Shown here piece by piece: positions 7,580 to 60,768 of a DNA stretch of 64,000 bases. Position 1 is the first letter of the stretch; the number at the start of each line of letters is the position of its first letter. The notes beneath the pieces were generated by a model. It had not been told where the DNA came from and searched no databases. It worked only from the letters and a program-made list of their open reading frames with translations. The DNA comes from Candidatus Nanoarchaeia archaeon (GTDB taxonomy: Archaea; Nanobdellota; Nanobdellia; SCGC-AAA011-G17; JACPNG01). The translations under genes were made by a program, and so were the position numbers. The stretch is taken from NCBI GenBank assembly GCA_028713535.1, contig JAQTOC010000003.1, positions 7,556 to 71,555 on the forward strand, written 5' to 3'.

Positions 7580-8401
7580 TTAGTCCAGTGGACTTTTTAT
7601 CTTTTTTATTTGCTCTTGCGAGACATGAGTATAAATTTGTGTGGTGCTTAACTGCGAATGCCCCAGCAGTTCCTGTATCAACCTTATATCTGTCCCGTTC
7701 TCCAGTAAATGTGTAGCAAAGCTGTGCCTAAGCGTGTGGGGTGTAACCCTTTTCTTTATTCCTGCCTTCATGGCAGTGTTCTGGATTATTTTTTGTATGT
7801 TTCTCGTCGTCAAAATATCCCTCCCTTGCCCAGGGAATATCCAAACATTTTCGCTCGGCAGCGTTTGAAGATATCTTTCAAGCTCTTTCAGGACTTTCCC
7901 TCCAACAATTGTCATTCTGTCCTTGCTTCCTTTTCCAGCTTTGACTCTTATTGTTTTTTCCTTGAAATTAATTTCATCGGTTTTTAACCTGACAAGCTCA
8001 GAGACTCGTAACCCCGTGCTGTAAAGCAGCTCGATTATTAATTTGGTTTTTTGGGATTTTGCATTTTTAATCAATAAAAATATTTCATCTCTGCTTAAAA
8101 CTTCCGGGTTTGACTTTGGGATCCTAGGAGTCTTCAAATTAATTATGTTTTTCTTTAAGATTTCATCATAAAAAAACTTCAGTGCACTTTTTTTCAGAGA
8201 AACACTTCTTGGTTTTAGCTTTAAGTCAGATATAATATAGCTCATATAACTTTTAATATCAGATTCAGTCACTTTATCCGGCTCTTTTTTTATATAATCC
8301 AGGAACAGCTTATTGTGCCGCATATAAGAGCTGAGCGTCTCTTTGGAAAAACCCCTTAGCTTTAATTCAACCTCTAGATTTTTTAACAATTTTTCACCCA
8401 A
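7580..8401 (-). CDS. xerA: tyrosine site-specific recombinase, XerA/XerC/XerD family
   Basis: C-terminal catalytic box 'HTLRHSFATHLLENGTDIRLIQELLGHSQLSTTQIYTHV' (R..HxxR..Y), 273 aa, typical of archaeal XerA. Confidence 0.85.
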   Translation of the reverse strand: MGEKLLKNLEVELKLRGFSKETLSSYMRHNKLFLDYIKKEPDKVTESDIKSYMSYIISDLKLKPRSVSLKKSALKFFYDEILKKNIINLKTPRIPKSNPEVLSRDEIFLLIKNAKSQKTKLIIELLYSTGLRVSELVRLKTDEINFKEKTIRVKAGKGSKDRMTIVGGKVLKELERYLQTLPSENVWIFPGQGRDILTTRNIQKIIQNTAMKAGIKKRVTPHTLRHSFATHLLENGTDIRLIQELLGHSQLSTTQIYTHVSQEQIKKIKSPLD

Positions 8402-26894: not shown

Positions 26895-27530
26895 ATGCTC
26901 AAACAAATAATCTTGGCATTAATTTTGGTATCTTCAATAGCCCAGGCAGCAACAATAACTGGAACAATCTATGATTTAGACTTTTCAAAAGTTGAAGAGG
27001 TCCTAGTAACAGTAAACTCAGTTCCAGAACAAAAATATTTTTCCAGTGATGGATCTTATAAGTTTGAGCTTCCTCCAGGAGAGTATACAATAATCGCAAG
27101 ACAGGAAGATCTTTTAGCTGAAGAGAATATAGAAGTTATCTCAGAAGGGAACTATGTAATTGATTTATTTTTGTTTCCTTCATTTGAAGAAGAAACCCAA
27201 CTCTTAGATGAAGAAGAATCTGTTCCAGATGTTGGAGATGGCCCCTCTTCCTGGATATGGATTGTTCCCATCTTTATTCTCATAAGTTTGATTATATTTT
27301 ATTTTCTTAGAAAAAAACCAAAAAAAGAAGAAAAAGAAATAATAAAAGAAGACCTGGAAAAATTGATTCAGATTATAAAAAAACATGGTGGAAGAACAAC
27401 CCAGAAAGAGCTTAGAAAAGAATTATTCTTGTCAGAAGCAAAGATAAGCTTGATGGTTACAGAACTTGAATCCATGAACAAGGTCAAAAGGATCAAGAAA
27501 GGAAGGGCAAACGTAATCATTCTAATTTAA
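26895..27530 (+). CDS. single-pass transmembrane protein: signal peptide + extracytoplasmic beta-sandwich (CarboxypepD_reg-like) + TM + cytoplasmic winged-helix
   Basis: Signal 'LVSSIAQA|A', 'ATITGTIYDLDFSKVEEVLVTVNS...GEYTIIARQ', TM 'WIWIVPIFILISLIIFYFL', C-terminal 'TQKELRKELFLSEAKISLMVTELESMNKVKRIKKGRANVI'. Confidence 0.55.
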   Translation: MLKQIILALILVSSIAQAATITGTIYDLDFSKVEEVLVTVNSVPEQKYFSSDGSYKFELPPGEYTIIARQEDLLAEENIEVISEGNYVIDLFLFPSFEEETQLLDEEESVPDVGDGPSSWIWIVPIFILISLIIFYFLRKKPKKEEKEIIKEDLEKLIQIIKKHGGRTTQKELRKELFLSEAKISLMVTELESMNKVKRIKKGRANVIILI

Positions 27531-37388: not shown

Positions 37389-38459
37389 ATGAAAAAAGGG
37401 GTTATCTCGCAGAGTTTTATATATATCTTTGCTGCAATAATCATGATCCTGATTTTAATCCTTGGTTTTTCAATATTTTCAAAATCCAAAAAATATGCAG
37501 AAGACGTTGATATACAAAGCTTTGTTCAAACATTAAACTCAAAAATAACTAAGATTAATGGCCTTGAAGAAGGGTCTGAATCAGTTTTTTCGTATGCTTT
37601 GCCCTCTAGCATTAATAAAATTTGTTTTGCAACAAATGCAAAGAGTTCAGATGCAGATTTAATATCTGTTTATAATCCTGAAAAAAATCTGTATATGTTT
37701 CCTGGCAATGCCTATTCTTTGAATGAAATTTATTTAGAAAATCCTATTTGTGTTTCCGGAAATAATCTAAACCTAAAACTGCTTAAACTGAAACAGGGAG
37801 TTACTATAACCTCTGAACAAGTCTCTCAGAAATGTAATACTCTCTTGTTTAACAAGGAAGATAATCTGGATATTCTGTTTATTTCAGACTCCTATCAAAA
37901 TATTAATGAATTTGTTGAAGATTCAAAAGAATATGTTAATTCTCTTCTTTCCAAAGAGCCATTAAAATCTAAAAAACAACTGCTTAATTTTTATTCCCTT
38001 AATCAATTCCCAGACCTTGGCTGCACAAAAGATTCCCTCTTGATTTGTGATACATTGTTAGTGCAAAAAGCAGCTTTAGACTGCCCTCATGACATTATTG
38101 TTGTTTTGTCTGAATCCGGCATGTTTTCCGGATTAAGGTCAACAAGTCTTGGAAATGTTATCTCAATAGCTACTGGAGACAATAATCTTGTTTTAAGCCA
38201 CGAACTTGGTCATGCTTTGGGTTTGTCAGATGAATATACAATGCCTGGATTCAAAAGCAGCTTAGAAGATTCTCCAAACTGCGATGTATCTCCCTGTGAA
38301 AAATGGGATAAGAACGGATGTTTTGAAGGATGTTCAAGTTCAGCTTATAACAGGCCATCAAAAGATTCTATCATGAAAAGCTATGGCCTTTTTTCAGTAA
38401 ACGAATTCAATGAACCTTCAAAGGAAGCAATGAGCAAAAAACTGGAGGTTTATGAATGA
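37389..38459 (+). CDS. secreted/anchored putative zinc metallopeptidase
   Basis: MKKG + hydrophobic anchor; 'HELGHALGLSDEY' HExxHxxGxxD motif. Confidence 0.5.
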   Translation: MKKGVISQSFIYIFAAIIMILILILGFSIFSKSKKYAEDVDIQSFVQTLNSKITKINGLEEGSESVFSYALPSSINKICFATNAKSSDADLISVYNPEKNLYMFPGNAYSLNEIYLENPICVSGNNLNLKLLKLKQGVTITSEQVSQKCNTLLFNKEDNLDILFISDSYQNINEFVEDSKEYVNSLLSKEPLKSKKQLLNFYSLNQFPDLGCTKDSLLICDTLLVQKAALDCPHDIIVVLSESGMFSGLRSTSLGNVISIATGDNNLVLSHELGHALGLSDEYTMPGFKSSLEDSPNCDVSPCEKWDKNGCFEGCSSSAYNRPSKDSIMKSYGLFSVNEFNEPSKEAMSKKLEVYE

Positions 38460-43161: not shown

Positions 43162-43680
43162 TTAGGGTCTTACCCAGTTAACCTCGTAGTAAGTTACAGA
43201 ATCTTCTTCATCAACTATCCCAAGTAACAAAGCTTTTTTAGTTGAATGTGCAACCCTGTTTTTTGCAGAAAATTCATACCATGTTAATGTGTCAGCTTCT
43301 GCAATAGGATATACAATCCATTTTGCATGATCCTCTCCTGGACTAACTCCCTTGTCATATACTCTGAAGTCAGCTCCGAACTTTAATGCGGTTTTTACAA
43401 TATATCCTCTCTCTCTTAAATCCTTGAAGACACAGTATCTTATCCAGAAGTTAGGCTCTATTTTTTGTGCTTTTTTGATAAACTCATTTTCCTTAATTTC
43501 TTTGTCTTTGCTGTCAAGAACTTTCATTTTTTGTTGCTGAATTAAAAACAACGCTTCAGACAGACTGTAATGTACTTTTTTGTCTTTTAATTCTCCAAAT
43601 CTTGATTTTTCATACATTTGGTTTGCTAACTCGTTGTTATCTGCAAAAACCCTTTCTCTTGAAAATACAGCGTTGATCAT
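43162..43680 (-). CDS. endA: tRNA-splicing endonuclease (catalytic subunit)
   Basis: 'YCVFKDLRERGYIVKTALKFGADFRVYDKG...HAKWIVYPI' matches EndA catalytic domain (Y, H, K triad). Confidence 0.85.
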   Translation of the reverse strand: MINAVFSRERVFADNNELANQMYEKSRFGELKDKKVHYSLSEALFLIQQQKMKVLDSKDKEIKENEFIKKAQKIEPNFWIRYCVFKDLRERGYIVKTALKFGADFRVYDKGVSPGEDHAKWIVYPIAEADTLTWYEFSAKNRVAHSTKKALLLGIVDEEDSVTYYEVNWVRP

Positions 43681-48212: not shown

Positions 48213-49403
48213 ATGGTGTCTGGTAATAAAGGGAAATCTACGAATAAGGATAGCCCTAAAAATAAAAATCCACGAAAGTTTTATGTTACAGATTTACTAA
48301 GAAACTTTTCAAATCATTCTGTTGCAGATATCATGCATCAGGTAAAATATGAGCTTAAAACCCAGCCAGATTACGCAATTGATGCATTCGAAGAACAATG
48401 GAAATACCTTGAAGAACAGAGAGCTAGAGCAAAGGGAGAACACGTAAATTCTTTGGATTTAGCTAATCGATTGCTTGGGATGGAACAGGGTCTTGCTTAT
48501 AAAAATCTAAATTTTAAAAATTTAAGAGAAGAACTGAGTAAAACTACTGATAAAAAAAAGCAGGAAAAATTGGAAAAGGATATGTTGGTTCTTCTTGTAA
48601 ATGCAGTCCATGATAAACAACAAGAGATTGGGAGAATTGCTCAGGAAGCAAAGCTGGATAAACCCGGTGGAAAATATCTTCAAGGAACGATTGAAGATCT
48701 AATAAAATACAATCAGCTTAACTTTGATTACCAAGGCAAAAAGAAGTTTGATACTGTTGGTGCTCAAAAGTATATTGAGGAACAACTAAGGGCGGGAAAA
48801 TCCAAGGAAGAGATTGCAGATTCAATGTATAAAAATATGGATAAGTACGAAAAAGATTCTGGTTTGCTTTACAGGATGAAAGGCGTAGGAGAATTCTTTA
48901 GGGCATTGAGGCATCCAAAAAGAAATATTTTTGACAGGACCAGGCGTAAACTTGGCTTATCAAATTATTCTGGTGGTGGAAAAGAATACTTAAATGAGGT
49001 AACTGAATTGTTAAAAGAAAACAAAGGGATTATTTCTGATAAAGTTGAAGATTCGGTTAACAAAATAAAAAAAGCAGAGGCTTACAAGGGTGTAGTCGAA
49101 CTTCTTCATGAAGGAGGATATATGAAAAGCAAGTCAGACTACCACACTTTGTCTGATGCTATAAGAGTTTATGGCAAAACTCACAAAAAGGAGATGAAAA
49201 AGCACATGTTAGAAGATTTGGCAGCAGCAATATTGTTCTGGGCTGCAGGAATTGTCGCTTTGGTAAGGGCAAAAGGATCACCAATCACAGGAGCAGTTGT
49301 AATATCAAATATTAATTTAGACCCCAATAATATCTTGTTTATAATTGGGTTCTTATGCTTGATTGTAGGTACAGCGGTGTTCTTGCACAGCAGACATAAA
49401 TAA
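48213..49403 (+). CDS. hypothetical protein with C-terminal TM anchor (396 aa)
   Basis: Charged helical body, two C-terminal hydrophobic helices. Confidence 0.45.
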   Translation: MVSGNKGKSTNKDSPKNKNPRKFYVTDLLRNFSNHSVADIMHQVKYELKTQPDYAIDAFEEQWKYLEEQRARAKGEHVNSLDLANRLLGMEQGLAYKNLNFKNLREELSKTTDKKKQEKLEKDMLVLLVNAVHDKQQEIGRIAQEAKLDKPGGKYLQGTIEDLIKYNQLNFDYQGKKKFDTVGAQKYIEEQLRAGKSKEEIADSMYKNMDKYEKDSGLLYRMKGVGEFFRALRHPKRNIFDRTRRKLGLSNYSGGGKEYLNEVTELLKENKGIISDKVEDSVNKIKKAEAYKGVVELLHEGGYMKSKSDYHTLSDAIRVYGKTHKKEMKKHMLEDLAAAILFWAAGIVALVRAKGSPITGAVVISNINLDPNNILFIIGFLCLIVGTAVFLHSRHK

Positions 49404-49442
49404 GAAAATTTATAAAAGAACTATTTCTAGAATTCCCTATAT

Positions 49443-49526
49443 GCGGGAGTGCCGGAGCGGTCAAACGGGATAGGTTTAGGCCCTATTGGCTTAGTGCCTG
49501 CGCAGGTTCGAACCCTGTCTCCCGCA
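49443..49526 (+). tRNA. tRNA-Leu (anticodon UAG), long variable arm
   Basis: Acceptor gcgggag/ctcccgc, anticodon arm atagg-TTTAGGC-cctat, long variable arm, T-loop ttcgaac; 3' end 4 nt from stop of convergent giant ORF. Confidence 0.8.
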
Positions 49527-49529
49527 GAA

Positions 49530-52500
49530 TTATAATTTAATGCTTAACTTTTCAGAATATTCTTTTCCGTCTATTTTTACTTTAATCGAGAATGTGTACC
49601 ATCCGCCTGTTTCAAATCTATCTAAATTAATGACTAACTGATTATTGTTTTTTATTTCAACATCAACCTTAAACATGTTTGCCGTAGCTTCAGCAGACTC
49701 AACATCTGTGTTGAGGTCAATTGTTAATTCCTTTCCATTAGAAGAATATTTTTTAATTAGTTTTTCATTGCATTTAGTATTCTCACAGCCAAACACACAT
49801 TCCTGGCTTGTTTTTAATTCATTGCTTTCGCATTTTATGATGCTTTTTTTATCATCGCTGCATTTAAGTCCTCCTTCCTTTAAGCCACTGCATCCATCTT
49901 CTTTTGCTTCCTCAGTTTTTTCAGCAGCAACCTCGCTTTTTTTCTCAAAGACATCGCCATGATCCCCTTCACTCCTGTAATCTTCTTTTCCTTTTCCAGC
50001 TTCAAGATAAATGAATCCGGTCTGGTAATATATTTCTGCTCTAAGCTCACTGTTCTGAACAGAATCCAATAATGCCTGCAATTCTTTTACGCTTTTTGTG
50101 TTTTTAATCTCGCTTAACTTAGTCTCTTTCTCTTCATCAGTCAGGGCAGTTATTCCCTTGTTCCTTAAATTTTCTACCTTTTTCTCTTCAAGATAGGAAG
50201 ATACATTTTCATAATTGCTAAGTGAGTCAAGACTAAAGCTTCTTGTGTCTAGCCAGCAGTCTCCAAGCGCAATCCCGTTGCTGTCTTTTCCGCAGCTTCC
50301 AGCTCTTCTCCAATAATCGTTCTCAGAATTTCCATCTGGATCATTAACAGAACAAATTCTCCTTATGCTGTCGGTGCTTGATCCAACTCCAGTTATGGTG
50401 TCCAGACTTTCTTCAATCTTTGATTTTTCTTCAGGAACACACTCTTCTTCATTTGTAATTTCTTTTGTTGCTTCTTCAGCAACAGCGTCGTCCTGCAGTT
50501 TATTTAATGCATAATCTGTTGTTACCCTTCCAAATCCGCATTCAGTTACCTCATTTATTTCAATGCACACCTCTTCAAAGCCTTCCCCTGCCACAGTATC
50601 AACATTCTTTGTGACATAGCCTCCATATTCTATCTGGCCTTTTGATTCGCTTGTGCTTCCTTCATCCCCAAATGTAACATAATGCCTTCTTCCAGTGCTG
50701 CTGTCTCTTAAATAGACTCTGTAGCTTAACTGTGTTGGTGCATTTGCTTCCTGTGTTGTTCCTGCATATATGTGGAAGAACACATTGTATTCATTTGCTC
50801 CAAATTTCTCACTGTATGTTTTTGAGCTTAATGTTGCTATGTATTGTGGTGGATCTCTTGGATTTACCAGTTTTGTTATAAACTCTCCAAGATTTGGTAT
50901 TGATCCAGTAACAACACCCTTGCATAACTCCATTTTTATCTGGGTTAATTTTGTTGATTTGTAAGATTGATCTACAATTGTTCCATACTCGCTTGTGAAA
51001 AATTCAACACTTTTCAATGCGGTTTCATAGCTGCTTGAGAAGTCTAGGTATTCTCCCCCGCCATCTGTGCTACTGCTGCTAATCATATTTCCATTGAAGA
51101 AATTGCTGATAAATTGGGTTGCTCCTTCTGCTTCTCTCCAGAAAACATCACAAATGTAGATGCTTTGTATTTTGTCGCATAAACCTACACTCTTTCCGTC
51201 TTCTTTTTGTGTTGTCAAGCAATCTTTTCCTGATTGGAATATAGATCTTATGTTCTTTAACCCAGCTAATATTCCTGTTGCACAAACAGGGAGTATGTCT
51301 CCAGAACCTTGTGGCAATACAATAGATCCGATAATGCCGGATCTTACTACATCCTTGACATACCAGTTGCCGCCTGCATTAAATCTTGAGACAGGGCATA
51401 CGATTGGATCGCATACATTGAATAACATTTTGCAGTCAGAGACACTCATCGAATCTGTGCAGTGGCCTATTGCTTTGTTTAGTTCTTTGTTTGCAGCATT
51501 TGTTTCGCAGTTAAACCATTTTCCGTCTTTGCTTTTTATTCTTTGTCCTTGTGTGCAGGTCTTTAATGAGTTTACATATGTCTGATACTTTAATAATTTG
51601 GAGGGTTCTTTTTCCTTTAGGAAACTGCTGCTCTCTAAACTGATGTCATCACCAGTGCATAATTTTCCGTCAGGGCCAACATTGTATGAACTGATTTCTC
51701 CTGCGCTTCCGTCAGCAAGTTGTTTTGTGACTTTTAAGTATACTCCTTTCTCATAAGGAACGCAGTAGGGTTTTCCGTCAGAGTAGAATTCTGCCGCAGC
51801 ATTCTTGTCATAATCTTTTCTTTCCCCTTTGTTGTCAGTTTCTTTTAGTACTAAATAACAGCCATTACTTGATGTGTATAATGAAGAAGCGCCAACAATC
51901 TTATTTAAATTCCCGCTGACATCCACACGATTAAGATCATTTATTGTTTGTACAGTTTTTCCTTCGTTGTCTACAACAAACCCAACCCCCTTTCCATTTT
52001 CAATTACAACCTCTGATATCGAGCCAGTTATTTCTTCGCATCCAACAGGTTTTTTATCTGTATTTGCCTTCCATTCTGACTGTCTTTTCTTGAAAGTCTC
52101 TGAACTTTGTGATTCAAGGCTGCTGTAAACAGTGTCGAATATTTTCTTTTTGTTCTCGTCGCTCTTTATGTCCTCTCCGAATAGGCTTTTAACCTCTGAA
52201 TATATCTCATTCTTTTTCTGCACGCTTTTTATTAAAGTATCCTTTTGTTTTTTTATTGTTTCAAAATATGCCTTTTCTTTTCCGCTGGTTCCATCTGGTT
52301 TATTATTGAGTATTGAGTTTAAGAAGAGATATTCTTTAACTTCATCGCTGTCAACCGTTAGTTCCTTTCCATTTTCATCAATTTTTGCTTCTTTTGCAAG
52401 ATCGCTATAAGCTTGTGTAGAATAAATGTTCCCATCTTTTAATGCATCATTGAAATCCTCTATTTTCTCATCTACCTCATCAATAATATTCTCTGCAAAC

Positions 52501-55481
52501 GCTCCTGTTTCAGTCAAGCACTTATCGTAGCTTTCATAGTATTTTCCGACCTTGCTTACAGACTCCAGATTTATGTTCATGATGCTGTTAGTCTGACAGA
52601 ACTCTTTTATTCCCATAACATTATCGTAGCCATTCATTACAACACTTCTTGCATCAGCTTTGTTCCCCAGCAAGAAGTTCTTGGCTGTTATGAACATGAA
52701 TGTTGCACCGCAACCAATAGTCCACCCCTTTACTATGTCTTCTGTTTTGTTAATAATTCCATTTAAGCTGTCTATAACAGAGTCAAGATTGTCTATATGG
52801 GTATCTAATTCCTCTGTTGTTAAATTAAATAATTTAATTCCCTTGTCAATTGGTATGTTTACATTGAACTCACTTGTGCTGTACACATTTGCTCTCCCAG
52901 GGATTATGGAAATCTGGGCTGCCTTGATTGCTTTAACTTCTTTAAGCTCAACTTCAATCTCCTTGCCAGAACTGTCCTTAATTTTTTCTTCTTCGTTTAT
53001 TTTTAATGTTTTTGAATCATCAGCTTTTGCTGATGGAAAATGATATCCGTTTTTTAATTGTTCAGAATTTTTGTTGTAGTTGCTGTTTCCAAGGAGGGCG
53101 TTTTCTAGCTGGTTTCTCAATTCAATTATTTTTTCGACATAAGTTTCATCTGCTGCTTGTTTTTCGCCGTCACAGGACATTCCATTGTATAATCTCAGTG
53201 CTCTTTCCCAACCCTTGTAATTTTTCCACGTTTCAATATAACTTGTGCAGTATGTGTTGTCCTTTAATCTGTCAACCATTGAGTTGTAGCTTGTTGCATC
53301 TTTGGTTTTTTCATATTTTAATTTTAGGAACTTAACTCCTGCTTTGATGTTTTCCTCAGCATCAAACCTTATATCCTGTTCCTTTGTTTTTTCAGATTTG
53401 CTTAGCTCAGCCAACTGTTCCAGATATTTTTTGTTATCTATCTTATATGCACAGGTTGATTTTTGTCCTTCAAGCTCCTTGTAGATATTTTCATCTTTTA
53501 TCCCTGCCTCATTTGCTGCCCCAGGCATTAACTGCATCAAACCCACTGCGCCGCAATAACCCTCGTTTGTTTTTGATATTGCTTTTGTATCAAATCCGCT
53601 TTCAATAGCAATCAGTGCTTTTACCAGTAATGGATCAACATCATACTCCTTGGAATATTTTAGGATTAAACTGTCATAATCATTTTTTATTGTTCTCCCG
53701 CCTATTTGTGTTGCACTTATTGCAATATCACTTTCTGTCAAAGCAGTTGGGTTTTTGATGTAATCCCCTGTTGTAATAATGATATTCTTGTCATTTATCT
53801 CAACAACCTTGTAGTCTGTTCCCTTTAATTTGGCTGATATCCCATAACTGTCTACTTGGTTGTCAACACTTACTTTTGCAGAAGCTCCAACCTGTTTTTT
53901 TATTGTTTTTAGCTCGATAATTGCTTCTTCTCCGTCAATATCTATGTTTTCTGAGGATGAGACCGTTGTTCCAATTGCATCCTTGAGATATTCTCCGTAC
54001 ATTGGAAGCAAGGCCGGATTTTTTATGTTTCCTAGCTCATCTAAAATCCTGCTCTTGAAAGAGTTGACATCATCCAATTCATTTGCATTTGTTGCTTTTT
54101 TTATTAAGTCCCTGTAAGCTAAGATAATCTGTTCTGTATATCTGTCCCAATCGTCTGCATTAGATATGACATACTCTCTTGCCCTGTTGAAGTTTGCGAT
54201 GGCTTCGCAATCCAAATCAAATGTTAAATCACTTTCAGGGTCTGGATTGCTTTTTGATCCTGAACATGGATTTACATTGCTGTAAGTTTGTTCATTTTTG
54301 TTTATTATTAAATTAATGGTCTTTTCTTCTTTTTTGTTGGTTAGTTTAACCTCTCCAGATTCATCTTCATCTTTTATTTCTTCAACAAACCAGTCTGTCC
54401 CAGATATGTAATTATTTTCAAATGCTTCAATTATGTTTATCTGATCTTCTTTGTATATCTCAAAAATTGCGCTTTTGCCCAACGAGTTAAGTATGCTGTC
54501 AAGCCTAACTCTTATCGTATCTGTTGCAGAGCTGCTGAACAATGAACTAAGTCCGCCCAAAGACATTGCAGATGTAGTCTCGCCAACCTTTAATGTTTGG
54601 AGTCCGCCAACAGAAGTTAATGTATTGTCATAAACCTGGATTGTTGCAGAATCATCCTCTATATTGTCTAGTCTTACATAATAAGCTCCATCTAAGAAAG
54701 AATCTTGGTAAGTTGAATCAATTCCTTCTGCAAAAGAAGTTGCTCCCTGATCTGTTCGTCTGCTTAATTTTTCTGTTAACGAAGTCCAGATATTTCGCAG
54801 CCCCTCAGTAACTGTTCTGGATTCCCTTGACGCATCTCCCGCGAACTCATCTTTGCTCTTCTGGTATATCAATTTTGTTAGTTGTCCATAGTTTAAGGTT
54901 CTGGCAGTACTAAACTCAATCCTTGCACTCAGGTTTAAGTCTATATTCTCTGGGATTTGATCTTCACTGCTGAATTTATTTAGCTCAATAATAACAATCC
55001 CAAGATTGTCTAAATCATTGTATTCCATTGTGCCAAGTGCACTTTTGATAGGAGACAATTGATCTAGATAAAAACTGGTTGGGGGGTAATAATCAATGCT
55101 TTTTATGTATGGATTGTATGATAGTGGGGTTATTATAATGTTATTTATTGTAGGAACTCCGATTGTGGGTTCGCCTGTGGAAATCTGTTCCCCCAGGAAA
55201 CTCCCGAGAGTGTTTCCACTAAGGTAAACAAACACAGGAACATTTCCTTTTGTTAATAAATTGCTGCTTAATACATTTGGTTCATAATCAGTAGGATAAA
55301 CATTTATTGCCTCTCCTAAATTATCATAGTAGCTTAATCCGCTTCTTATCGTGTCTGTGGAAGCATATCTTGAAATTGTCTGGCTGCTTCTTGAGCTTGG
55401 CTGGGTTCTTGTTGTGGCAGCAAATGATACATTGCTAAGTAAGAAAATTACTATCAATGTTATTGCAATAATCTTTTTCAT
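49530..55481 (-). CDS. giant secreted protein (1983 aa) with internal GH23/SLT lytic-transglycosylase-like domain and Cys-rich C-terminal region
   Basis: Sec signal 'SNVSFA|ATT'; SLT motifs 'ALIAIESGFD...GAVGLMQLMPGAA'; >40 Cys in C-terminal half; start overlaps upstream gene's stop (ATGA). Confidence 0.85.
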   Translation of the reverse strand: MKKIIAITLIVIFLLSNVSFAATTRTQPSSRSSQTISRYASTDTIRSGLSYYDNLGEAINVYPTDYEPNVLSSNLLTKGNVPVFVYLSGNTLGSFLGEQISTGEPTIGVPTINNIIITPLSYNPYIKSIDYYPPTSFYLDQLSPIKSALGTMEYNDLDNLGIVIIELNKFSSEDQIPENIDLNLSARIEFSTARTLNYGQLTKLIYQKSKDEFAGDASRESRTVTEGLRNIWTSLTEKLSRRTDQGATSFAEGIDSTYQDSFLDGAYYVRLDNIEDDSATIQVYDNTLTSVGGLQTLKVGETTSAMSLGGLSSLFSSSATDTIRVRLDSILNSLGKSAIFEIYKEDQINIIEAFENNYISGTDWFVEEIKDEDESGEVKLTNKKEEKTINLIINKNEQTYSNVNPCSGSKSNPDPESDLTFDLDCEAIANFNRAREYVISNADDWDRYTEQIILAYRDLIKKATNANELDDVNSFKSRILDELGNIKNPALLPMYGEYLKDAIGTTVSSSENIDIDGEEAIIELKTIKKQVGASAKVSVDNQVDSYGISAKLKGTDYKVVEINDKNIIITTGDYIKNPTALTESDIAISATQIGGRTIKNDYDSLILKYSKEYDVDPLLVKALIAIESGFDTKAISKTNEGYCGAVGLMQLMPGAANEAGIKDENIYKELEGQKSTCAYKIDNKKYLEQLAELSKSEKTKEQDIRFDAEENIKAGVKFLKLKYEKTKDATSYNSMVDRLKDNTYCTSYIETWKNYKGWERALRLYNGMSCDGEKQAADETYVEKIIELRNQLENALLGNSNYNKNSEQLKNGYHFPSAKADDSKTLKINEEEKIKDSSGKEIEVELKEVKAIKAAQISIIPGRANVYSTSEFNVNIPIDKGIKLFNLTTEELDTHIDNLDSVIDSLNGIINKTEDIVKGWTIGCGATFMFITAKNFLLGNKADARSVVMNGYDNVMGIKEFCQTNSIMNINLESVSKVGKYYESYDKCLTETGAFAENIIDEVDEKIEDFNDALKDGNIYSTQAYSDLAKEAKIDENGKELTVDSDEVKEYLFLNSILNNKPDGTSGKEKAYFETIKKQKDTLIKSVQKKNEIYSEVKSLFGEDIKSDENKKKIFDTVYSSLESQSSETFKKRQSEWKANTDKKPVGCEEITGSISEVVIENGKGVGFVVDNEGKTVQTINDLNRVDVSGNLNKIVGASSLYTSSNGCYLVLKETDNKGERKDYDKNAAAEFYSDGKPYCVPYEKGVYLKVTKQLADGSAGEISSYNVGPDGKLCTGDDISLESSSFLKEKEPSKLLKYQTYVNSLKTCTQGQRIKSKDGKWFNCETNAANKELNKAIGHCTDSMSVSDCKMLFNVCDPIVCPVSRFNAGGNWYVKDVVRSGIIGSIVLPQGSGDILPVCATGILAGLKNIRSIFQSGKDCLTTQKEDGKSVGLCDKIQSIYICDVFWREAEGATQFISNFFNGNMISSSSTDGGGEYLDFSSSYETALKSVEFFTSEYGTIVDQSYKSTKLTQIKMELCKGVVTGSIPNLGEFITKLVNPRDPPQYIATLSSKTYSEKFGANEYNVFFHIYAGTTQEANAPTQLSYRVYLRDSSTGRRHYVTFGDEGSTSESKGQIEYGGYVTKNVDTVAGEGFEEVCIEINEVTECGFGRVTTDYALNKLQDDAVAEEATKEITNEEECVPEEKSKIEESLDTITGVGSSTDSIRRICSVNDPDGNSENDYWRRAGSCGKDSNGIALGDCWLDTRSFSLDSLSNYENVSSYLEEKKVENLRNKGITALTDEEKETKLSEIKNTKSVKELQALLDSVQNSELRAEIYYQTGFIYLEAGKGKEDYRSEGDHGDVFEKKSEVAAEKTEEAKEDGCSGLKEGGLKCSDDKKSIIKCESNELKTSQECVFGCENTKCNEKLIKKYSSNGKELTIDLNTDVESAEATANMFKVDVEIKNNNQLVINLDRFETGGWYTFSIKVKIDGKEYSEKLSIKL

Positions 55482-57403
55482 GTTAGTTTTGGATATTCAA
55501 AAAATATATTTTCTGGATATCTTGAAAGTTCATCTGCAAATGCTGCAGGGTCTTCATATATTGTGTCTGAGTTGTCATAAACCGCGTAGAATATTATTTT
55601 GCTTGAACTCTTTAATTCATCCCTGTTTATGCTAAAGCTGAAATCTCCTCCGCCAATAAGATTTTGTTTAAAGCTCTGTTCAGGTATTGTATTCTCTATG
55701 CATTCGCTCTTTGTCTTCCCAAGCAAACCCAAGATCCCATCAGGGATATCAACACATTTTGTGAATTTTCTTTCTGGCATTGTGATTGTTTTCCCTTCTT
55801 CAGACATAACATAAGAGTTTATGCTGTATTCTCCAGGAATTATTTTGATTTTTCCTGTTGGATTGCTTAGGACTGTGTTGTAATTATCACTTTTAATCTC
55901 AAACATAACCTGTTCATCCTCTACCTCTCGTGTTGCTCCTGTATTCTTGTTGATTAATTGTACCTCATAATCTAGGTAGTAATAAGGTTCTAGATAGACT
56001 GTGATTTCATTTTCCCTTGTTGTTGAGAGTATCTGGCTTCCTACTCCAAGGTCCTTGTTCTCTGCGACAATCTCCCCATTGACGCAGCTTGGGAAATAAC
56101 TTGTCATTGTTCCGTCGCTTTCCCCGATGTAGCAGTTGCTTACACCGCAGTTATAAGACACCTGCGCAGGAATTTCTTCAAACGTTTCAATGTCTAGTGT
56201 TCTCACATTGACTTCCTTGTTCCTTGAGTTGCATATTGTGTCCTTGAAGTTTGAAACATTCAAGTTTGTTATTGTGTCCACTCTTGGCTGGTTTTTTTCT
56301 ATAACAACCATCGTGGCAAATTGGAATATATCTCCATCAGCCATCAATGTAACTAAAACCGGATATTTTATATCATACGCAAAGTTGTAATTATTTATGC
56401 AGACCATTCCGGATAGAATTTGATTTATTTCACTCCCACCAGCAGCAGAGCCCTTTGCAATTAATAAGTCTCCTTCCCTTGGCTGGACCTCAATTTCAAA
56501 TGGCCAGGTTTCTAAGTACCTTAAATTTACATTAATATCATATTGTTTCTTTAAAGCAGACCACTCGAAATATTTTTCTGTATTTTCATAATTTGTTCCC
56601 TTTATCTTTATGTTTGGGATGTTTAGTTCTATTATTTTTTTAAGTTTAGTAATTATATCATCTACAAACCATGTTTTTACCCCGCAATTAAACTCAGTTC
56701 CAGAATACGGGATATCCTCATATACAGTTAGCATATCAATTGTTTTTTCCTCAAGATAATATTCTTTGCTTTCATCATCAAAAATTTGCCTTGCTACCTT
56801 GTATAATTCTCCAAGGTTTGAATTTACAGAAGTACTGAACTCATCCAGCTTGTATTCGTTGTCCCCTTTCTTTATGGTAACTGGCATGTCCAAACCAACA
56901 CCTATTTTCTTGTCCTGGATGGTTATGTCCACTCTTTTCTCTCCAGTATGGATAGCATACCCTTGGAAATCTGTGAAATTACTAAGACACAATTCCAATG
57001 CGCTTTCAATGAATAATTTTAAGTCGGATTCCATATCAGTTATTGCAGGATAGTTTGTTTTATCAACATTGTTTGCTTTTTTGTAGTACCAATATGGAAC
57101 TTTTGCGTTTCCTGTGGTTAATGCATTTGAAAATTTATTGAAGTCAGAGGCAGGGATGCTATCTTCTTCAACAACAAGGTAACCACCCTGCAAACCAATA
57201 ATCCTCGACCCAATTAGTGTTGTTCTTGCAAGACAGCCCTCTATGTTGCTTCTTACCGCCTCGACTTCTTCACCACCTTTTTCCCCAGAAATAATCTCTG
57301 TACCCTTTTCTAGGATAGAATCCCTGAAAACAAGGAATATAGCAACAAGTACTACCAATATAATACCGATGATGACAAACAGTGAAACCTGGCCTCTTTT
57401 CAT
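55478..57403 (-). CDS. large surface protein (641 aa) with archaeal class III (prepilin-like) signal peptide
   Basis: N-terminus 'MKRG|QVSLFVIIGIILVVLVAIFLVF' fits [KR]G/A-Q + hydrophobic prepilin-peptidase substrate pattern; remainder beta-rich with Cys pairs. Confidence 0.7.
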   Translation of the reverse strand: MKRGQVSLFVIIGIILVVLVAIFLVFRDSILEKGTEIISGEKGGEEVEAVRSNIEGCLARTTLIGSRIIGLQGGYLVVEEDSIPASDFNKFSNALTTGNAKVPYWYYKKANNVDKTNYPAITDMESDLKLFIESALELCLSNFTDFQGYAIHTGEKRVDITIQDKKIGVGLDMPVTIKKGDNEYKLDEFSTSVNSNLGELYKVARQIFDDESKEYYLEEKTIDMLTVYEDIPYSGTEFNCGVKTWFVDDIITKLKKIIELNIPNIKIKGTNYENTEKYFEWSALKKQYDINVNLRYLETWPFEIEVQPREGDLLIAKGSAAGGSEINQILSGMVCINNYNFAYDIKYPVLVTLMADGDIFQFATMVVIEKNQPRVDTITNLNVSNFKDTICNSRNKEVNVRTLDIETFEEIPAQVSYNCGVSNCYIGESDGTMTSYFPSCVNGEIVAENKDLGVGSQILSTTRENEITVYLEPYYYLDYEVQLINKNTGATREVEDEQVMFEIKSDNYNTVLSNPTGKIKIIPGEYSINSYVMSEEGKTITMPERKFTKCVDIPDGILGLLGKTKSECIENTIPEQSFKQNLIGGGDFSFSINRDELKSSSKIIFYAVYDNSDTIYEDPAAFADELSRYPENIFFEYPKLT

Positions 57404-57591
57404 TTTAATGCTATTACTAATTTTGATCCTCCGAGTTTTTTTATCTTGACTAATTTTTTCTTTTGCATATCTTCAATTATGTCTGTGACAGTGGCATTTT
57501 TTATGTTAAAGAAACCAGCAATCATACTGAAATTTACTAGGTTATCCCTCTTCTTTACAAAGTCCAGTATCTCTTCTTCCTTGGGTATCAT
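57400..57591 (-). CDS. small winged-helix protein (63 aa), first gene of the operon
   Basis: 'FSMIAGFFNIKNATVTDIIEDMQKKKLVKI' HTH-like; stop overlaps downstream ATG. Confidence 0.5.
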   Translation of the reverse strand: MIPKEEEILDFVKKRDNLVNFSMIAGFFNIKNATVTDIIEDMQKKKLVKIKKLGGSKLVIALK

Positions 57592-57723
57592 TTAAAGCAC
57601 TTTAAAAGCTTTATTTTAGTCTAAAAGGCTAAAAAAGCCTTTGTTCTTGGTTTAAAATATTTTAAAACCTTTAATAAACTAAGAACATATAGACAGAACT
57701 AATATATAAATATTTTGAAAAGA

Positions 57724-57819
57724 ATGGGCCCGGGGCGAATCGAACGCCCGACCTCCTCCACGTCAAGGAGACGTCATACCTTTGCCCGTTCTTTTTTGGA
57801 GAACTCTAGACCACGGGCC
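57724..57819 (-). tRNA. tRNA-Val (anticodon GAC) with ~23-nt intron in the D-loop region
   Basis: Minus-strand fold: acceptor gggcccg/cgggccc (A73), anticodon arm tctcc-TTGACGT-ggagg, var aggtc, T-arm gggcg-ttcgatt-cgccc; 96 nt = 73-nt mature + 23 nt (ttctccaaaaaagaacgggcaaa) inserted after 'gtctagag'. Confidence 0.7.
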
Positions 57820-57830
57820 CCTTTAAAAAA

Positions 57831-57902
57831 GAGCCCCAGGAGGGACTTGAACCCCCGACCCCCTGATTACAAGTCAGGTGCTCTACCACTGAGCTACTGG
57901 GG
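57831..57902 (-). tRNA. tRNA-Thr (anticodon UGU)
   Basis: Minus-strand: acceptor gccccag/ctggggc, D gctc/gagc, anticodon arm cctga-CTTGTAA-tcagg, T-arm ggggg-ttcaagt-ccctc. Confidence 0.85.
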
Positions 57903-58016
57903 CATAGAGATAACTCATCCTAAGCTTTTTAAAAACATTTCTATTAATACAAATATATACTTAGGATGGAAAAGAGAAGGAATTTCCCTCTCTTATAACT
58001 TGCTTTTGGTTATATA

Positions 58017-58379
58017 TTATATTATTACTGTGGGTGGAGGTTTATCTTCTTCTTTAATGATACTCCTTTCGCTTGTTTCATCTTTTATTGTTTTTTGCAT
58101 ATCCTCCGGTAGGTCTAAAAGAACCTTCTCTAGTTCGCTGGGCGATAGACTACATATGAGTTTGTAGGCGTTGGCTGTATGTATACTTGTTTCAGTGGAT
58201 GGGACTGCGGGGTGTGGTTTGTCTTCTAGATTCATCAGTTTATCTATAGGCACTGATTTTGTTTGAAAAGCCAATCTAGCTATACCTCTGCTGGCAATTA
58301 TCGCACAGACTGCATCTTTAATTGATACAATCTGAGAAGGATCTTCACCGAAATCTTCTGTTTCTTTTTTAGCTGACAA
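58017..58379 (-). CDS. hypothetical protein (120 aa)
   Basis: Intact minus-strand ORF; the overlapping plus-strand ORF 57715..58167 is antisense to two tRNAs and rejected. Confidence 0.4.
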   Translation of the reverse strand: MSAKKETEDFGEDPSQIVSIKDAVCAIIASRGIARLAFQTKSVPIDKLMNLEDKPHPAVPSTETSIHTANAYKLICSLSPSELEKVLLDLPEDMQKTIKDETSERSIIKEEDKPPPTVII

Positions 58380-58520: not shown

Positions 58521-60290
58521 TTAAATCTTAGCTTTTAAGACTTCGGCCCCTCTTTTAGTAATCCTAAGCTCTTTTTTCCAGCCCTTGTCATGTTTAATAA
58601 CTTCTGTGGCGATTAAACCAAGATCCTCTAATTTTTTCTTTATGGCATTTCCCCTTCTTACGCTAATTTTAAATAACTCATAAATCTTTGAAATATTAAA
58701 TCCTTCATTCTTAGCTATAAAATCTAAGAACTTTTTTTCTTCATTGTCAAGCTTAAACTCAGGTTTTTTGATTTTAACTTGTTCTTCTAAAAATTCTTTT
58801 GGGGCTGCAACTCCAGAAGCTTTGAAGATATCATCCATTTTTTCTTTTTCTTCATTGACTTCTTTTTCAACTCTCTCTTCAACATAGCCCTTTTCAACCT
58901 CGTCTTGAATTACTTTTTGCCCCATCTTTACTCTTAAATCTTCATCTGTTACAACCTCCTCCTTAAGGCGTACTAAAGGAGTTTTTATCATAAAAGGAGT
59001 TGTATGTCTCTCAGATAATTTTACAAGGGCTTCACCTACCTGCAGCATTGAGAAGTAATCTTTGTGCTCTCTTAGCTGCATGATTCCTGATACTTGTTCA
59101 AGATCATCTGGCAAAACCTGCTGGAAAGCTACATTGCATGCGCTGTTTCCTGCCACAACGTCACTTAACTTAGATATGTGCTGGTCTAAGCAGATTAATC
59201 CAACCCCATACTCCCTGATCTCTCTGTAAACAACCTCTGTTGCGCCTTCTTTTATGAAATTAGGCTTGTCCTTTAAGAATATGTTATGTGCCTCGTCGAT
59301 TATTATTGCCTGGGTGAATTCCCCTCTTGTGGCATTTTCGTTTGTTTTTTTGTATTTGTACAAATAACTTAAGATAAATTCACAGAAGAATTTTTTCTGT
59401 GAGCTGTTTAATGAATGCAATTCAAATAATAACTTATCTCCAAAATAATCTTCAACTTTTACGCTGTCTTTTCCTTTATAGCCTATAACGTCCCCAAAGT
59501 CTCCAAAAGTTAATGCATGTGCTATTCTTAATGCAGAAATCAGCCATTCACTCTCTCTGTTTCTTATCTTCATTTCTTCTTCCTTGATTTCTAATCTGTC
59601 TTTAATCTGATGCCAGGTAGGATAATTTTCAGAACCTTCATACACCCCAAATTCTCTAAATGATTCATCCAAGGTTTCAACAATTATTTTATGTACTCCA
59701 TAGCTTGCAAAGAAACTCTCTGTAACCATATCTGCTAACAGGCTGATCCATTCTTTAGGAGGAACTCCTTGAGGCGGCCTGTTGATGTTTATCTTGAAGT
59801 TATTGTTTATCTTGGAGTTGCCTATCGTGTAAACTTTTATTTGGTTGTCAACTAAAACCAAAGACCTAAAACTTTTTTTCCAGTCAAATATCCAGAAGGG
59901 CTTGTTATTTTTTATTAAGTTTCCAATAATTACAAAAGCAAAATTTGTTTTTCCAGATCCGCTCATCCCGCTGATGCATACGTGTCTTGGCCAGTCTTTG
60001 TCTCTTAACCCAAAAGGATAATAGTCTTTTTCAGCATAAGTTATTACCCCCAATGGATAATCTCCGCCTATTATTTCTTTTTTTGGAGGCTCAAGAAGTA
60101 TTTTCTGGCTCAGCATGCTCTGATTTAAATGTTTGTGATACAAAGCACTTATTGCCTGTTCAATTTCAAATTTCTCGTCCCCTCTTTCTGCTAATCTGTA
60201 TCTTAGATAAAGGGCATCAATCTTTTTACCAAAGACAGGCCTTAGTTTCCTGCATAGTTCTTCTATAGTTAATTCTTTATCAAATGCCAT
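58521..60290 (-). CDS. HerA/FtsK/VirB4-superfamily (DUF87-like) ATPase with C-terminal winged-helix domain
   Basis: Walker A 'ISGMSGSGKTNFA', Walker B 'AIIIDEAHNIF', 589 aa, acidic linker then wHTH-like 'FLDFIAKNEGFNISKIYELFKISVRRGNAIKKKLEDLGLI'. Confidence 0.75.
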   Translation of the reverse strand: MAFDKELTIEELCRKLRPVFGKKIDALYLRYRLAERGDEKFEIEQAISALYHKHLNQSMLSQKILLEPPKKEIIGGDYPLGVITYAEKDYYPFGLRDKDWPRHVCISGMSGSGKTNFAFVIIGNLIKNNKPFWIFDWKKSFRSLVLVDNQIKVYTIGNSKINNNFKININRPPQGVPPKEWISLLADMVTESFFASYGVHKIIVETLDESFREFGVYEGSENYPTWHQIKDRLEIKEEEMKIRNRESEWLISALRIAHALTFGDFGDVIGYKGKDSVKVEDYFGDKLLFELHSLNSSQKKFFCEFILSYLYKYKKTNENATRGEFTQAIIIDEAHNIFLKDKPNFIKEGATEVVYREIREYGVGLICLDQHISKLSDVVAGNSACNVAFQQVLPDDLEQVSGIMQLREHKDYFSMLQVGEALVKLSERHTTPFMIKTPLVRLKEEVVTDEDLRVKMGQKVIQDEVEKGYVEERVEKEVNEEKEKMDDIFKASGVAAPKEFLEEQVKIKKPEFKLDNEEKKFLDFIAKNEGFNISKIYELFKISVRRGNAIKKKLEDLGLIATEVIKHDKGWKKELRITKRGAEVLKAKI

Positions 60291-60291
60291 C

Positions 60292-60768
60292 TTAGTCTAG
60301 AATCTTGTCCAGCATGTTTGCTTCACTCTGTTTTTCCCTTAATTCCTTGCTCCACTCTCTTAATTCTTTTTTAAGCAAGGCAATGTCTCTCCAGCATTCA
60401 AGTTTTTCTTTAACCTTCATCTCTTCCAGTTCTGCTTTTTTCTTGAGTAAGTTTAGCCTCTCGCTTGAAGCGTTAGGATCCATTGTAGATACGCTTATGG
60501 TCATTGTATTAATCTGGCTTACAATTTTATCAATGTCATTCATAAGTTCCTTTGTTAGTTTTTTTCTTTCTTCAATAAGCTCGGCAATCTCTCTTTGGCT
60601 TTCTATCAATGAGTTGATATCTTTCTTTTGTATGTCCTTAAGAATTTCGTCTCCGCCAATAACCTGGTCTTCAAAGGCCGCACTATAGTCTTTTAACTTT
60701 GGCCTTTCCTTCTTATGTTCCATCTCTAGGTCAGACAGGAACCCTTCTAAAATATCTTTTTTTGCCAT
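60292..60768 (-). CDS. coiled-coil protein (158 aa), translationally adjacent to the ATPase
   Basis: Heptad-rich E/K sequence; stop 1 nt from ATPase start codon. Confidence 0.5.
   Translation of the reverse strand: MAKKDILEGFLSDLEMEHKKERPKLKDYSAAFEDQVIGGDEILKDIQKKDINSLIESQREIAELIEERKKLTKELMNDIDKIVSQINTMTISVSTMDPNASSERLNLLKKKAELEEMKVKEKLECWRDIALLKKELREWSKELREKQSEANMLDKILD

Follow-up and report, generated by a model that had tools for sequence, protein, structure and literature searches.

A conserved gene pair of Woese- and Pacearchaeota-type archaea encodes a protein with a pilin-like N-terminus and a secreted giant protein with interchangeable wall hydrolase domains

In a stretch of 64,000 nucleotides (nt) from the genome of a Candidatus Nanoarchaeia archaeon, a tiny organism that probably depends on a host (assembly GCA_028713535.1, contig JAQTOC010000003.1, positions 7,556 to 71,555; hereafter called the window), three open reading frames (ORFs) of the minus strand code for proteins of 63, 641 and 1983 amino acids (aa). 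It had been suggested in an earlier note, made from the DNA letters, that these ORFs form a translationally coupled operon, in which a protein with a prepilin-like signal and a giant secreted protein might serve the attachment to a host or its invasion. The locus thus raises the question of whether the genes belong together and, if so, what an archaeon may do with such a pair of large proteins. The coordinates of the three ORFs (Table 1) were found to match those of the note exactly, and both junctions, the one between the 63-aa and 641-aa genes and the one between the 641-aa and giant genes, consist of a 4-nt ATGA overlap of stop and start codon. In the NCBI annotation of identical proteins the two smaller products are hypothetical proteins and the giant is a 'transglycosylase SLT domain-containing protein'. 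The gene content of the window is archaeal (TFIIB, S3Ae, S8e, S15, tRNA-splicing endonuclease; GC content ~35%), and the presence of the genes for TFIIB, S3Ae, S8e and the endonuclease agrees with the DPANN host that the note had assumed.

Relatives were confirmed in 293 stretches by a pattern scan of species-representative genomes, and 80 loci were kept. All of these belong to Woese-, Nano- or Pacearchaeota or to unclassified archaeal metagenome-assembled genomes, each comes from a different assembly, and the complete genome of AR20 is included. When 84 fetched loci were analysed with our own ORF calls and hidden Markov model (HMM) searches, both large genes were found in 79, and in every one of these the 641-family gene is the immediate upstream neighbour of the giant gene (1.5-3.3 k aa in the orthologues), both being read from one strand; in 51 loci the two genes overlap by 4 nt. 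Chance is excluded by this adjacency and by the recurrence of the overlap, so that the coupling is real and the three genes of the window form a coupled unit, as had been claimed. The slot that the pair occupies is conserved as well, with genes for S15, a GAN/DHH nuclease and S3Ae on one side and for L37e, LSM, S8e and TFIIB on the other, and the Thr-Val tRNA pair upstream and the tRNA-Leu downstream of the module were also found in L005, L006, L023 and L055. Since the housekeeping slot is fixed and the same tRNAs occur in distant relatives, the pair appears to be vertically inherited across the order and not to be an island. The bracket of tRNA-Leu(TAG) downstream and tRNA-Thr(TGT) and tRNA-Val(GAC) upstream, which the earlier note had pointed out, does exist; synteny in the relatives identifies it as an ancestral trait of a housekeeping locus and not as the mark of an island. 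A mobile element or provirus between the tRNAs was ruled out by the same gene order and tRNAs in distant relatives.

The giant contains only one hydrophobic segment (aa 1-21), with the characteristics of a Sec-type signal peptide (MKKIIAITLIVIFLLSNVSFA|A), and 36 Cys, in line with its previous description as a Cys-rich secreted protein. A signal peptide of this type is present in every full-length orthologue whose true N-terminus was captured, and the giant is predicted to be a Sec-secreted modular scaffold without a membrane anchor of its own. Like the 641-aa protein it has an even number of Cys, and Cys are conserved both in the 641-aa protein and in the core of the giant. As word-index searches with the giant gave only 9 and 2 proteins, orthologues were taken from the 84 fetched loci. 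In an alignment of the core with 36 sequences and 31% mean identity, 38 columns are invariant, including 15 Cys, and for the C-terminal tail phmmer gave a match in none of the related loci. Outside the SLT domain, no match of the giant was obtained in Pfam, NCBIfam, PHROG or the PDB sequences, the PHROG matches being confined to that domain. The earlier note was thus roughly right that more than 90% of the length is without an assignable function, although it overlooked the SLT domain in the informative 10%.

This SLT domain (Pfam PF01464, aa 605-662) was detected with E=4.7e-14 and 52.4 bits against a gathering cut-off of 21.3, and transglycosylase and lytic-tail matches in NCBIfam and PHROG agree with it. 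A Glucosaminidase match overlaps the domain at aa 607-792 with 29.8 bits, just under the cut-off of 30.2, which suggests that the domain extends to about aa 792. Lytic transglycosylases of family 1 are characterised by a catalytic Glu in an E-S motif, by GLMQ and by (A)YNxG. All of these motifs are intact in the giant (AIE627SGF, GLMQ at 647-650, and LYNGM at 764-768 with YNG at 765-767), and the domain is predicted to be a lytic transglycosylase that cleaves the backbone of murein between N-acetylmuramic acid (MurNAc) and N-acetylglucosamine (GlcNAc).

The distribution of hydrolase domains across the loci was followed by iterated HMM searches, and the frequency per module was calculated for 52 non-redundant loci with a complete giant. 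SLT domains occur in 31 loci, always in the giant or in the ORF directly after it, and their position varies: they lie on the N-terminal side (aa ~360-800), at the C-terminus (aa ~1700-2300) or in a separate downstream secreted protein. Amidase_2, a MurNAc-L-Ala amidase, was found in 4 loci (Pfam-confirmed for L080) and Peptidase_M15_4 in 5 loci (Pfam-confirmed for L003), and at least one of the three domains is present in 27 of the 52 complete modules. The wall hydrolase domains are thus swappable add-ons to a conserved scaffold, and three predicted enzymes for three different murein bonds have repeatedly been recruited to the same giant. Since the archaeal producer has no murein, the murein target must be another organism. 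A MurNAc-specific amidase argues, from the chemistry of the two polymers, against pseudomurein as the target.

The 641-aa protein did not match any entry in Pfam, NCBIfam, PHROG or the PDB sequences, and the profile of its family gave nothing meaningful against solved structures. A word-index search returned 79 homologues, and all the named ones are hypothetical proteins of Nano-, Woese- and Pacearchaeota without Pfam domains; a profile search in 1.84 billion cluster representatives returned 9717 at E<=1e-3 and 2127 at E<=1e-30. Its N-terminus reads as quoted in the earlier note, MKRG|QVSLFVIIG... (in full MKRG|QVSLFVIIGIILVVLVAIFLVF, the bar marking the putative cleavage site), and shows the arrangement of a class III signal, a short basic leader that ends in Gly/Ala directly before a hydrophobic helix of ~20 residues. 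The motif K-[RK]-[GA]|Q-[VI]-T-x-[FY]-[IV]-I-[IL] stands at the start of the hydrophobic segment in 201 of the 219 family representatives, independently of the length of the leader (3 to ~70 residues), and Q5 and G13 are nearly invariant. Judged from the alignment, this conservation goes well beyond what a plain signal anchor would need, and we regard it as rather probable that a class III (prepilin-type) signal peptidase cuts the protein at KRG|Q. Filament systems of type IV have been reported in DPANN/Nanoarchaeota, the Gln+1 'system 1' among them (bioRxiv 10.64898/2026.04.22.720090). ORFs of ~160 aa that start with KRGQ(I/V)(S/T) followed by a hydrophobic helix were also seen in two of the loci (L005 905-1393 (-) and L040 21418-21894 (+)). 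One of them reads KRGQISE and is of the QxSxE type; both are without a pilin match in Pfam, and they are candidate pilins that may share the processing motif of the 641 family.

The single hydrophobic segment of the 641-aa protein is N-terminal. Because in-frame fusions with a winged helix-turn-helix (wHTH) domain lie upstream of the motif, the N-terminus should be cytoplasmic and the bulk of the protein outside. All 10 Cys occupy invariant or nearly invariant alignment columns, which fits a bulk that would form an extracellular, disulfide-bonded domain. An AlphaFold2 model built with 74 sequences reached a predicted local distance difference test score (pLDDT) of 87.9 and suggests a helix at 3-37, a floppy linker of low confidence at 34-42, an alpha/beta region and tandem beta-sandwiches. 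In the model, the latter resemble stalk domains of Gram-positive pilins and adhesins, transthyretin-like domains of the carboxypeptidase-D type and, generically, SlaB.

The 63-aa protein, which opens the unit, had been described as a winged-helix protein. Its 8 Pfam matches all concern wHTH families, MarR and Penicillinase_R among them, which speaks for the description, but none reaches the gathering score of Pfam. The best one, with the N-terminal domain of Fe_dep_repress, has E=2.6e-4 and 21.6 bits against a cut-off of 26, and a match to the C-terminal winged-helix region of CdvB is sub-threshold as well. The protein probably binds DNA and regulates the transcription of the unit. With its orthologue in L005 it shares 94% identity, against ~60% for the neighbouring genes. 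Of the 79 related loci, 16 have a wHTH gene immediately before the pair, and in another 5 the wHTH is joined in frame to the 641-family protein, so that about one related locus in four contains it and it counts as an optional accessory of the module. Fusions were seen in AR20 (L017 9803-11950, CP010426), P0028, P0030 and P0117, with the wHTH domain just upstream of an internal M-K-K-R-G-Q. If such a fusion is made as one chain and cut at G|Q, the class III peptidase would free a cytoplasmic DNA-binding domain; if it stays uncleaved, its architecture would be ToxR-like.

Our best explanation for these observations is that the 641-aa protein and the giant form an anchored two-subunit surface complex which contacts and cuts bacterial murein and which is specific to DPANN archaea of the Woesearchaeales/Pacearchaeales type. 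We consider the chances for and against this explanation to be about evenly balanced. The two proteins should be made together, since their genes are neighbours on one strand in all loci with both and overlap in most of them. In the mechanism that we propose, a class III peptidase would process the 641-aa protein at KRG|Q, the N-terminal helix would retain it either in the membrane or within a short assembly resembling a pilus or a bindosome, and the beta-sandwich stalk would project the novel head domain. The 641-aa protein would hold the giant at the cell surface, in analogy to the bacterial minor pilins that hold the Sec-secreted PilY1. The giant would then contact the wall of a bacterial partner or prey, where its SLT domain would cut the MurNAc-GlcNAc backbone locally, leading to tight attachment or to access, and the 63-aa wHTH protein would act as an optional transcriptional regulator of the unit.

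Several observations weigh against this explanation. A recognisable wall hydrolase is missing in about half of the complete modules, and no significant Pfam domain was found in the SLT-less giants; therefore, murein cleavage itself is not the conserved function of the scaffold. We know of no bacterial host of archaea of the Woesearchaeales/Pacearchaeales type. That the 641-aa protein and the giant interact is inferred from gene order. Profile searches with the N-terminal domain, the middle region and the core of the giant did not retrieve a PDB relative, a model of the core with 11 sequences is unreliable in its central, apparently helical part (a fold search with the core gave generic Ig-like matches only), and the alpha/beta region of the 641-aa protein (aa ~45-380) had no sizeable match in a fold search against the PDB. 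The class III signal is also affected. The Pfam family Class_IIIsignal (PF04021, of the QxSxE type) matched only 1 of 10 N-termini (E=1.3; 9.5 bits, cut-off 23.7), and the 641 family has Gln at +1 and Ser/Thr at +3 but Phe/Tyr instead of Glu at +5. A Glu at +5 is also absent in Sulfolobus and Haloferax pilins (PMC3875500). No prepilin peptidase (Peptidase_A24), pilus ATPase or platform gene was found among the ORFs of at least 120 aa in the window, and, given this machinery-free neighbourhood, the 641-aa protein may carry a plain uncleaved signal anchor; two nanoarchaea without a class III signal peptidase have been described. The class III pattern claimed in the earlier note thus stands as a motif conserved throughout the family, while the signal family of Pfam and the neighbouring genes do not back it.

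A more far-reaching version of the same idea would make the pair the conserved centre of a so far undescribed DPANN organelle related to type IV filaments, in which a pilin-signal base displays a giant effector. The invariant Cys-rich helical core of this effector would act on membranes (pore- or fusion-like), and bacterial walls would be opened by its interchangeable hydrolase modules. The organelle would be the molecular basis of a cross-domain parasitism of Woesearchaeales/Pacearchaeales on bacteria, and the occasional wHTH fusion would couple secretion or cleavage to gene regulation. We regard this version as unlikely.

The main rival of the proposed cutting complex is an S-layer of two components, in which the 641-aa protein would be the anchored stalk and the giant the outer canopy, in analogy to SlaB and SlaA of Sulfolobus, and the hydrolases would be lineage-specific decorations. 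A near-universal presence in the sampled lineage, the 80 loci kept being from different assemblies, and a fixed position beside ribosomal protein genes would suit such a role, as would the stoichiometric coupling of the two genes, the combination of a small anchored with a large unanchored secreted subunit and the modules lacking a hydrolase, half of the total, which fit a structural core function. However, the match to SlaB is that of a generic beta-sandwich, over 140 residues and with a root-mean-square deviation of 20 A, and structure-database searches did not reveal a sequence relationship to any S-layer protein; neither specific fold homology nor sequence homology of the pair to known S-layer subunits was found. 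The anchor of the 641-aa protein is N-terminal and carries a conserved pilin-like motif, whereas that of SlaB is C-terminal, and the invariant Cys-rich, largely helical core of the giant is unlike the Ig-like domains that archaeal S-layer lattices typically have and that usually diverge fast. We therefore hold an S-layer role to be doubtful, though more than a formal alternative. We judge it improbable that the giant is set free as a bacteriolytic exoenzyme or toxin, with the 641-aa protein as an unrelated or chaperone-like neighbour. The giant has a Sec signal, no anchor and an intact SLT domain, and archaeal peptidoglycan hydrolases that kill bacteria have been documented, with homologues prominent in Nanoarchaeota (PMC12352652), but a catalytic domain of 200 aa leaves a conserved scaffold of ~1800 aa unexplained, half of the orthologues are without any hydrolase, and the strict adjacency to, and overlap with, the gene of an anchored partner argue for a complex.

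The fusions in AR20, P0028, P0030 and P0117, together with the very high conservation of the wHTH protein, could also be read as the sign of a ToxR-type membrane sensor, of which the wHTH domain would have been split off in the window and for which the giant would be the ligand or the target gene. This seems very improbable to us, as about three quarters of the modules are without a wHTH, the 641-aa protein in its split form has ~4 cytoplasmic residues and so cannot signal, and the fused genes keep the internal Met-Lys-Lys-Arg-Gly-Gln start, so that the fusion may be an effect of read-through or gene calling. Even less credible is an apparatus for conjugation or DNA transfer, of the type IV secretion or Ced-like kind, in which the SLT domain would open the wall as an enzyme of the VirB1 type and the partner would be the upstream ATPase, a 589-aa protein of the DUF87/HerA type. 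An SLT domain beside a VirB4-type ATPase is typical of bacterial conjugation systems, and the best NCBIfam match of the ATPase is CedD, with a trace of TraC; all these matches are weak and far below the cut-offs. The ATPase was found in only 5 of the 84 loci (4 distinct genomes) and, except in the two closest relatives, does not adjoin the pair; in L010 it lies 8 kb away on the other strand. No coupling-protein, VirB6-like channel or relaxase family was detected among the Pfam-scanned ORFs of at least 120 aa in the window, and the locus is a vertically conserved housekeeping locus rather than an element. A link of the pair to the HerA/VirB4-like ATPase is thus largely refuted by synteny.

Large SLT proteins of Woese-/Pacearchaeota have been described before by Castelle et al. 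2021 (PMC8204110, fam00969) and Vigneron et al. 2022 (PMC9723730), who cite earlier notes from 2013 and 2015, the latter on the AR20 protein. The family fam00969 comprises extracellular proteins of up to ~3000 aa with an SLT domain and is restricted to Woesearchaeota/Pacearchaeota (PMC8204110), and it has been proposed that such giants bind or degrade bacterial walls (PMC8204110, PMC9723730). Peptidoglycan hydrolases active against bacteria have been documented in other archaea (PMC12352652). The giant of the window, with ~2000 aa, a secretion signal and a GH23/SLT domain and from the same lineage, has the features that define this family, and AR20 itself carries the module (L017). The giant cannot count as an unrecognised novelty, since both NCBI and the literature (PMC8204110, PMC9723730) already name the SLT domain; the proposal of the earlier note, a surface protein for host contact, fares better, as the recurring murein hydrolase domains fit it. 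The published descriptions mention the SLT domain only, whereas here it is an optional insert of shifting position in a scaffold that does not depend on it, Amidase_2 or M15 can replace it, and the giant always follows a 641-family gene in a fixed housekeeping slot. In the literature searched, no description was found of the obligatory 641-family partner, the fixed locus, the SLT-independent scaffold or the interchangeable hydrolase cargo, and these four features appear to be additions to the known family of giant SLT proteins.

The 641-aa protein shares with class III proteins, such as the Epd pilins of Methanococcus (processed by EppA) and the bindosome of Sulfolobus (PibD), a short basic leader with Gly as its last residue, a Gln at +1, Ser/Thr at +3 and a hydrophobic helix of ~20 residues after the cleavage site. 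With the sugar-binding proteins of the bindosome (PMC3047682) it also shares a large ectodomain not of the filament type behind a pilin-type N-terminus. It differs from class III proteins in Phe/Tyr instead of Glu at +5, in the lack of a PF04021 match and in the absence of assembly genes nearby, and from structural pilins in its far larger size. As a functional analogy only, the operon resembles the bacterial type IVa tip complex, which likewise combines a pilin-signal protein with a large anchor-less Sec protein and in which the pilin-like partner presumably displays the large PilY1-type protein. No similarity to PilY1 in sequence or fold was found, PilY1 is without a wall hydrolase, and no pilus genes are linked to the pair. 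A PilY-like adhesin has been described for the archaeal subsystem 4A/B, a subsystem found in some Nanoarchaeota (bioRxiv 10.64898/2026.04.22.720090). With SlaA and SlaB of Sulfolobales there is similarity only in generic beta-sandwiches, and the giant differs in its Cys-rich helical core and its enzyme inserts. The order of the SlaA and SlaB genes is opposite to that of the 641-family and giant genes. The highest scores of the SLT domain itself were obtained with flagellar-assembly and phage lytic tail proteins, and VirB1-type, flagellar and phage-tail lysins likewise are local murein cutters carried by a larger surface structure. However, these lysins open the wall of the producer or of the target for a defined channel or tail, and the carrier scaffold described here is unrelated to theirs.

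Table 1. Position of the unit, its domains and other features in the window (numbered from its first nucleotide).
Feature	Position	Strand	Remark
63-aa wHTH gene	57400..57591	(-)	first of the unit; ORF call
641-aa protein gene	55478..57403	(-)	ORF call
Leader MKRG, putative cleavage site G|Q and hydrophobic helix (aa 1-34) of 641-aa protein	57302..57403	(-)	
N-terminal alpha/beta ectodomain region (aa ~45-380) of 641-aa protein	56264..57271	(-)	
Tandem beta-sandwich 'stalk' domains (aa ~394-610) of 641-aa protein	55574..56224	(-)	
1983-aa giant gene	49530..55481	(-)	ORF call
Sec-type signal peptide of giant	55419..55481	(-)	sequence and hydropathy; orthologues of same architecture
Conserved N-terminal domain of giant (aa ~40-410)	54252..55364	(-)	phmmer, 56/84 loci
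GH23/SLT domain of giant (aa ~596-795)	53097..53696	(-)	accessory insertion in scaffold
Conserved middle region of giant (aa ~801-1150)	52032..53081	(-)	K/E-rich; 61/84 loci
Most conserved, Cys-rich core of giant (aa ~1220-1790)	50112..51824	(-)	
Variable C-terminal tail of giant (aa 1861-1983)	49533..49901	(-)	6-Cys motif, then beta-rich end
Promoter region of the unit	57592..57724		AT-rich, TATA-like runs
tRNA-Leu(TAG)	49442..49527	(+)	convergent, 2 nt from stop codon of giant; conserved downstream boundary
tRNA-Val(GAC), intron-containing	~57725..57820	(-)	upstream of unit, between promoter region and tRNA-Thr
tRNA-Thr(TGT)	57831..57903	(-)	upstream of unit; with tRNA-Val the conserved upstream boundary
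589-aa DUF87/HerA-type ATPase	58521-60290	(-)	
158-aa protein	60292-60768	(-)	coupled to ATPase; no family
120-aa ORF	58017-58379	(-)	between ATPase and tRNAs; no family match
396-aa protein	48213-49403	(+)	convergent with giant
tRNA-splicing endonuclease	43162-43680		
Tyrosine recombinase	7580-8401	(-)	Phage_integrase and SAM-like N-domain
Possible surface/secreted protein	26895-27530	(+)	
Possible surface/secreted protein	37389-38459	(+)	

The remaining features of the window (Table 1) can be dealt with briefly. The tRNA-Val(GAC) gene was missed by ARAGORN in default mode and by Rfam, and the intron mode of ARAGORN miscalls it as tRNA-Ser; ARAGORN calls the tRNA once an intron of ~24 nt in the D-arm is removed. 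The D-arm is a non-canonical position for an intron. In relatives, the tRNA-Val(GAC) in this place is free of introns, and since the close relatives L005 and L006 are among them, the intron was gained or lost recently. The window also contains a gene for a tRNA-splicing endonuclease.

The optional neighbours of the pair are the wHTH gene, the HerA/VirB4-like ATPase and a membrane protein of ~245 aa. The ATPase, annotated by NCBI as 'DUF87 domain-containing protein', is 84% identical to its closest orthologue, a value above that of ribosomal protein S3Ae, and its C-terminal ~140 aa match phage 'transcriptional regulator' families; together with the 158-aa gene it forms a pair that is confined to the closest relatives. 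The ~245-aa polytopic membrane protein follows the giant directly in 28 of the 84 loci (L003 20374-21108, L017 18399-19097 and 26 others) and consists of one helix, an extracellular coiled segment and ~4-5 further helices, without a Pfam family; no homologue was found in the window or in the closest relatives. The 396-aa protein has C-terminal transmembrane helices and a weak match to a DNA-binding family of plasmid replication; in L005 and L006 it is found at the corresponding place, and it is fast-evolving (37% identity). A homologue of the 120-aa ORF, with 105 aa, lies at the same place in L005. The tyrosine recombinase, with several ORFs without family in its neighbourhood, could be a chromosomal XerA-type resolvase or the integrase of an element. 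Of the two possible surface or secreted proteins, one is CarboxypepD_reg-like with DUF7343, and the other has a partial match to Peptidase_M64, a family of IgA peptidases.

Woesearchaeales and Pacearchaeales belong to the uncultured archaea with the widest distribution. Where there had been scattered remarks on a 'big SLT protein', the analysis defines a surface module of two genes that is found order-wide, and the pair can be used as a marker locus when asking which of the lineages have arms against bacteria. If the wall of a partner is indeed the substrate of the hydrolases, the module would be direct molecular evidence of an episymbiosis of archaea on bacteria, or of predation. If, on the other hand, the pair is an S-layer, it would represent a new S-layer family for a major archaeal clade.

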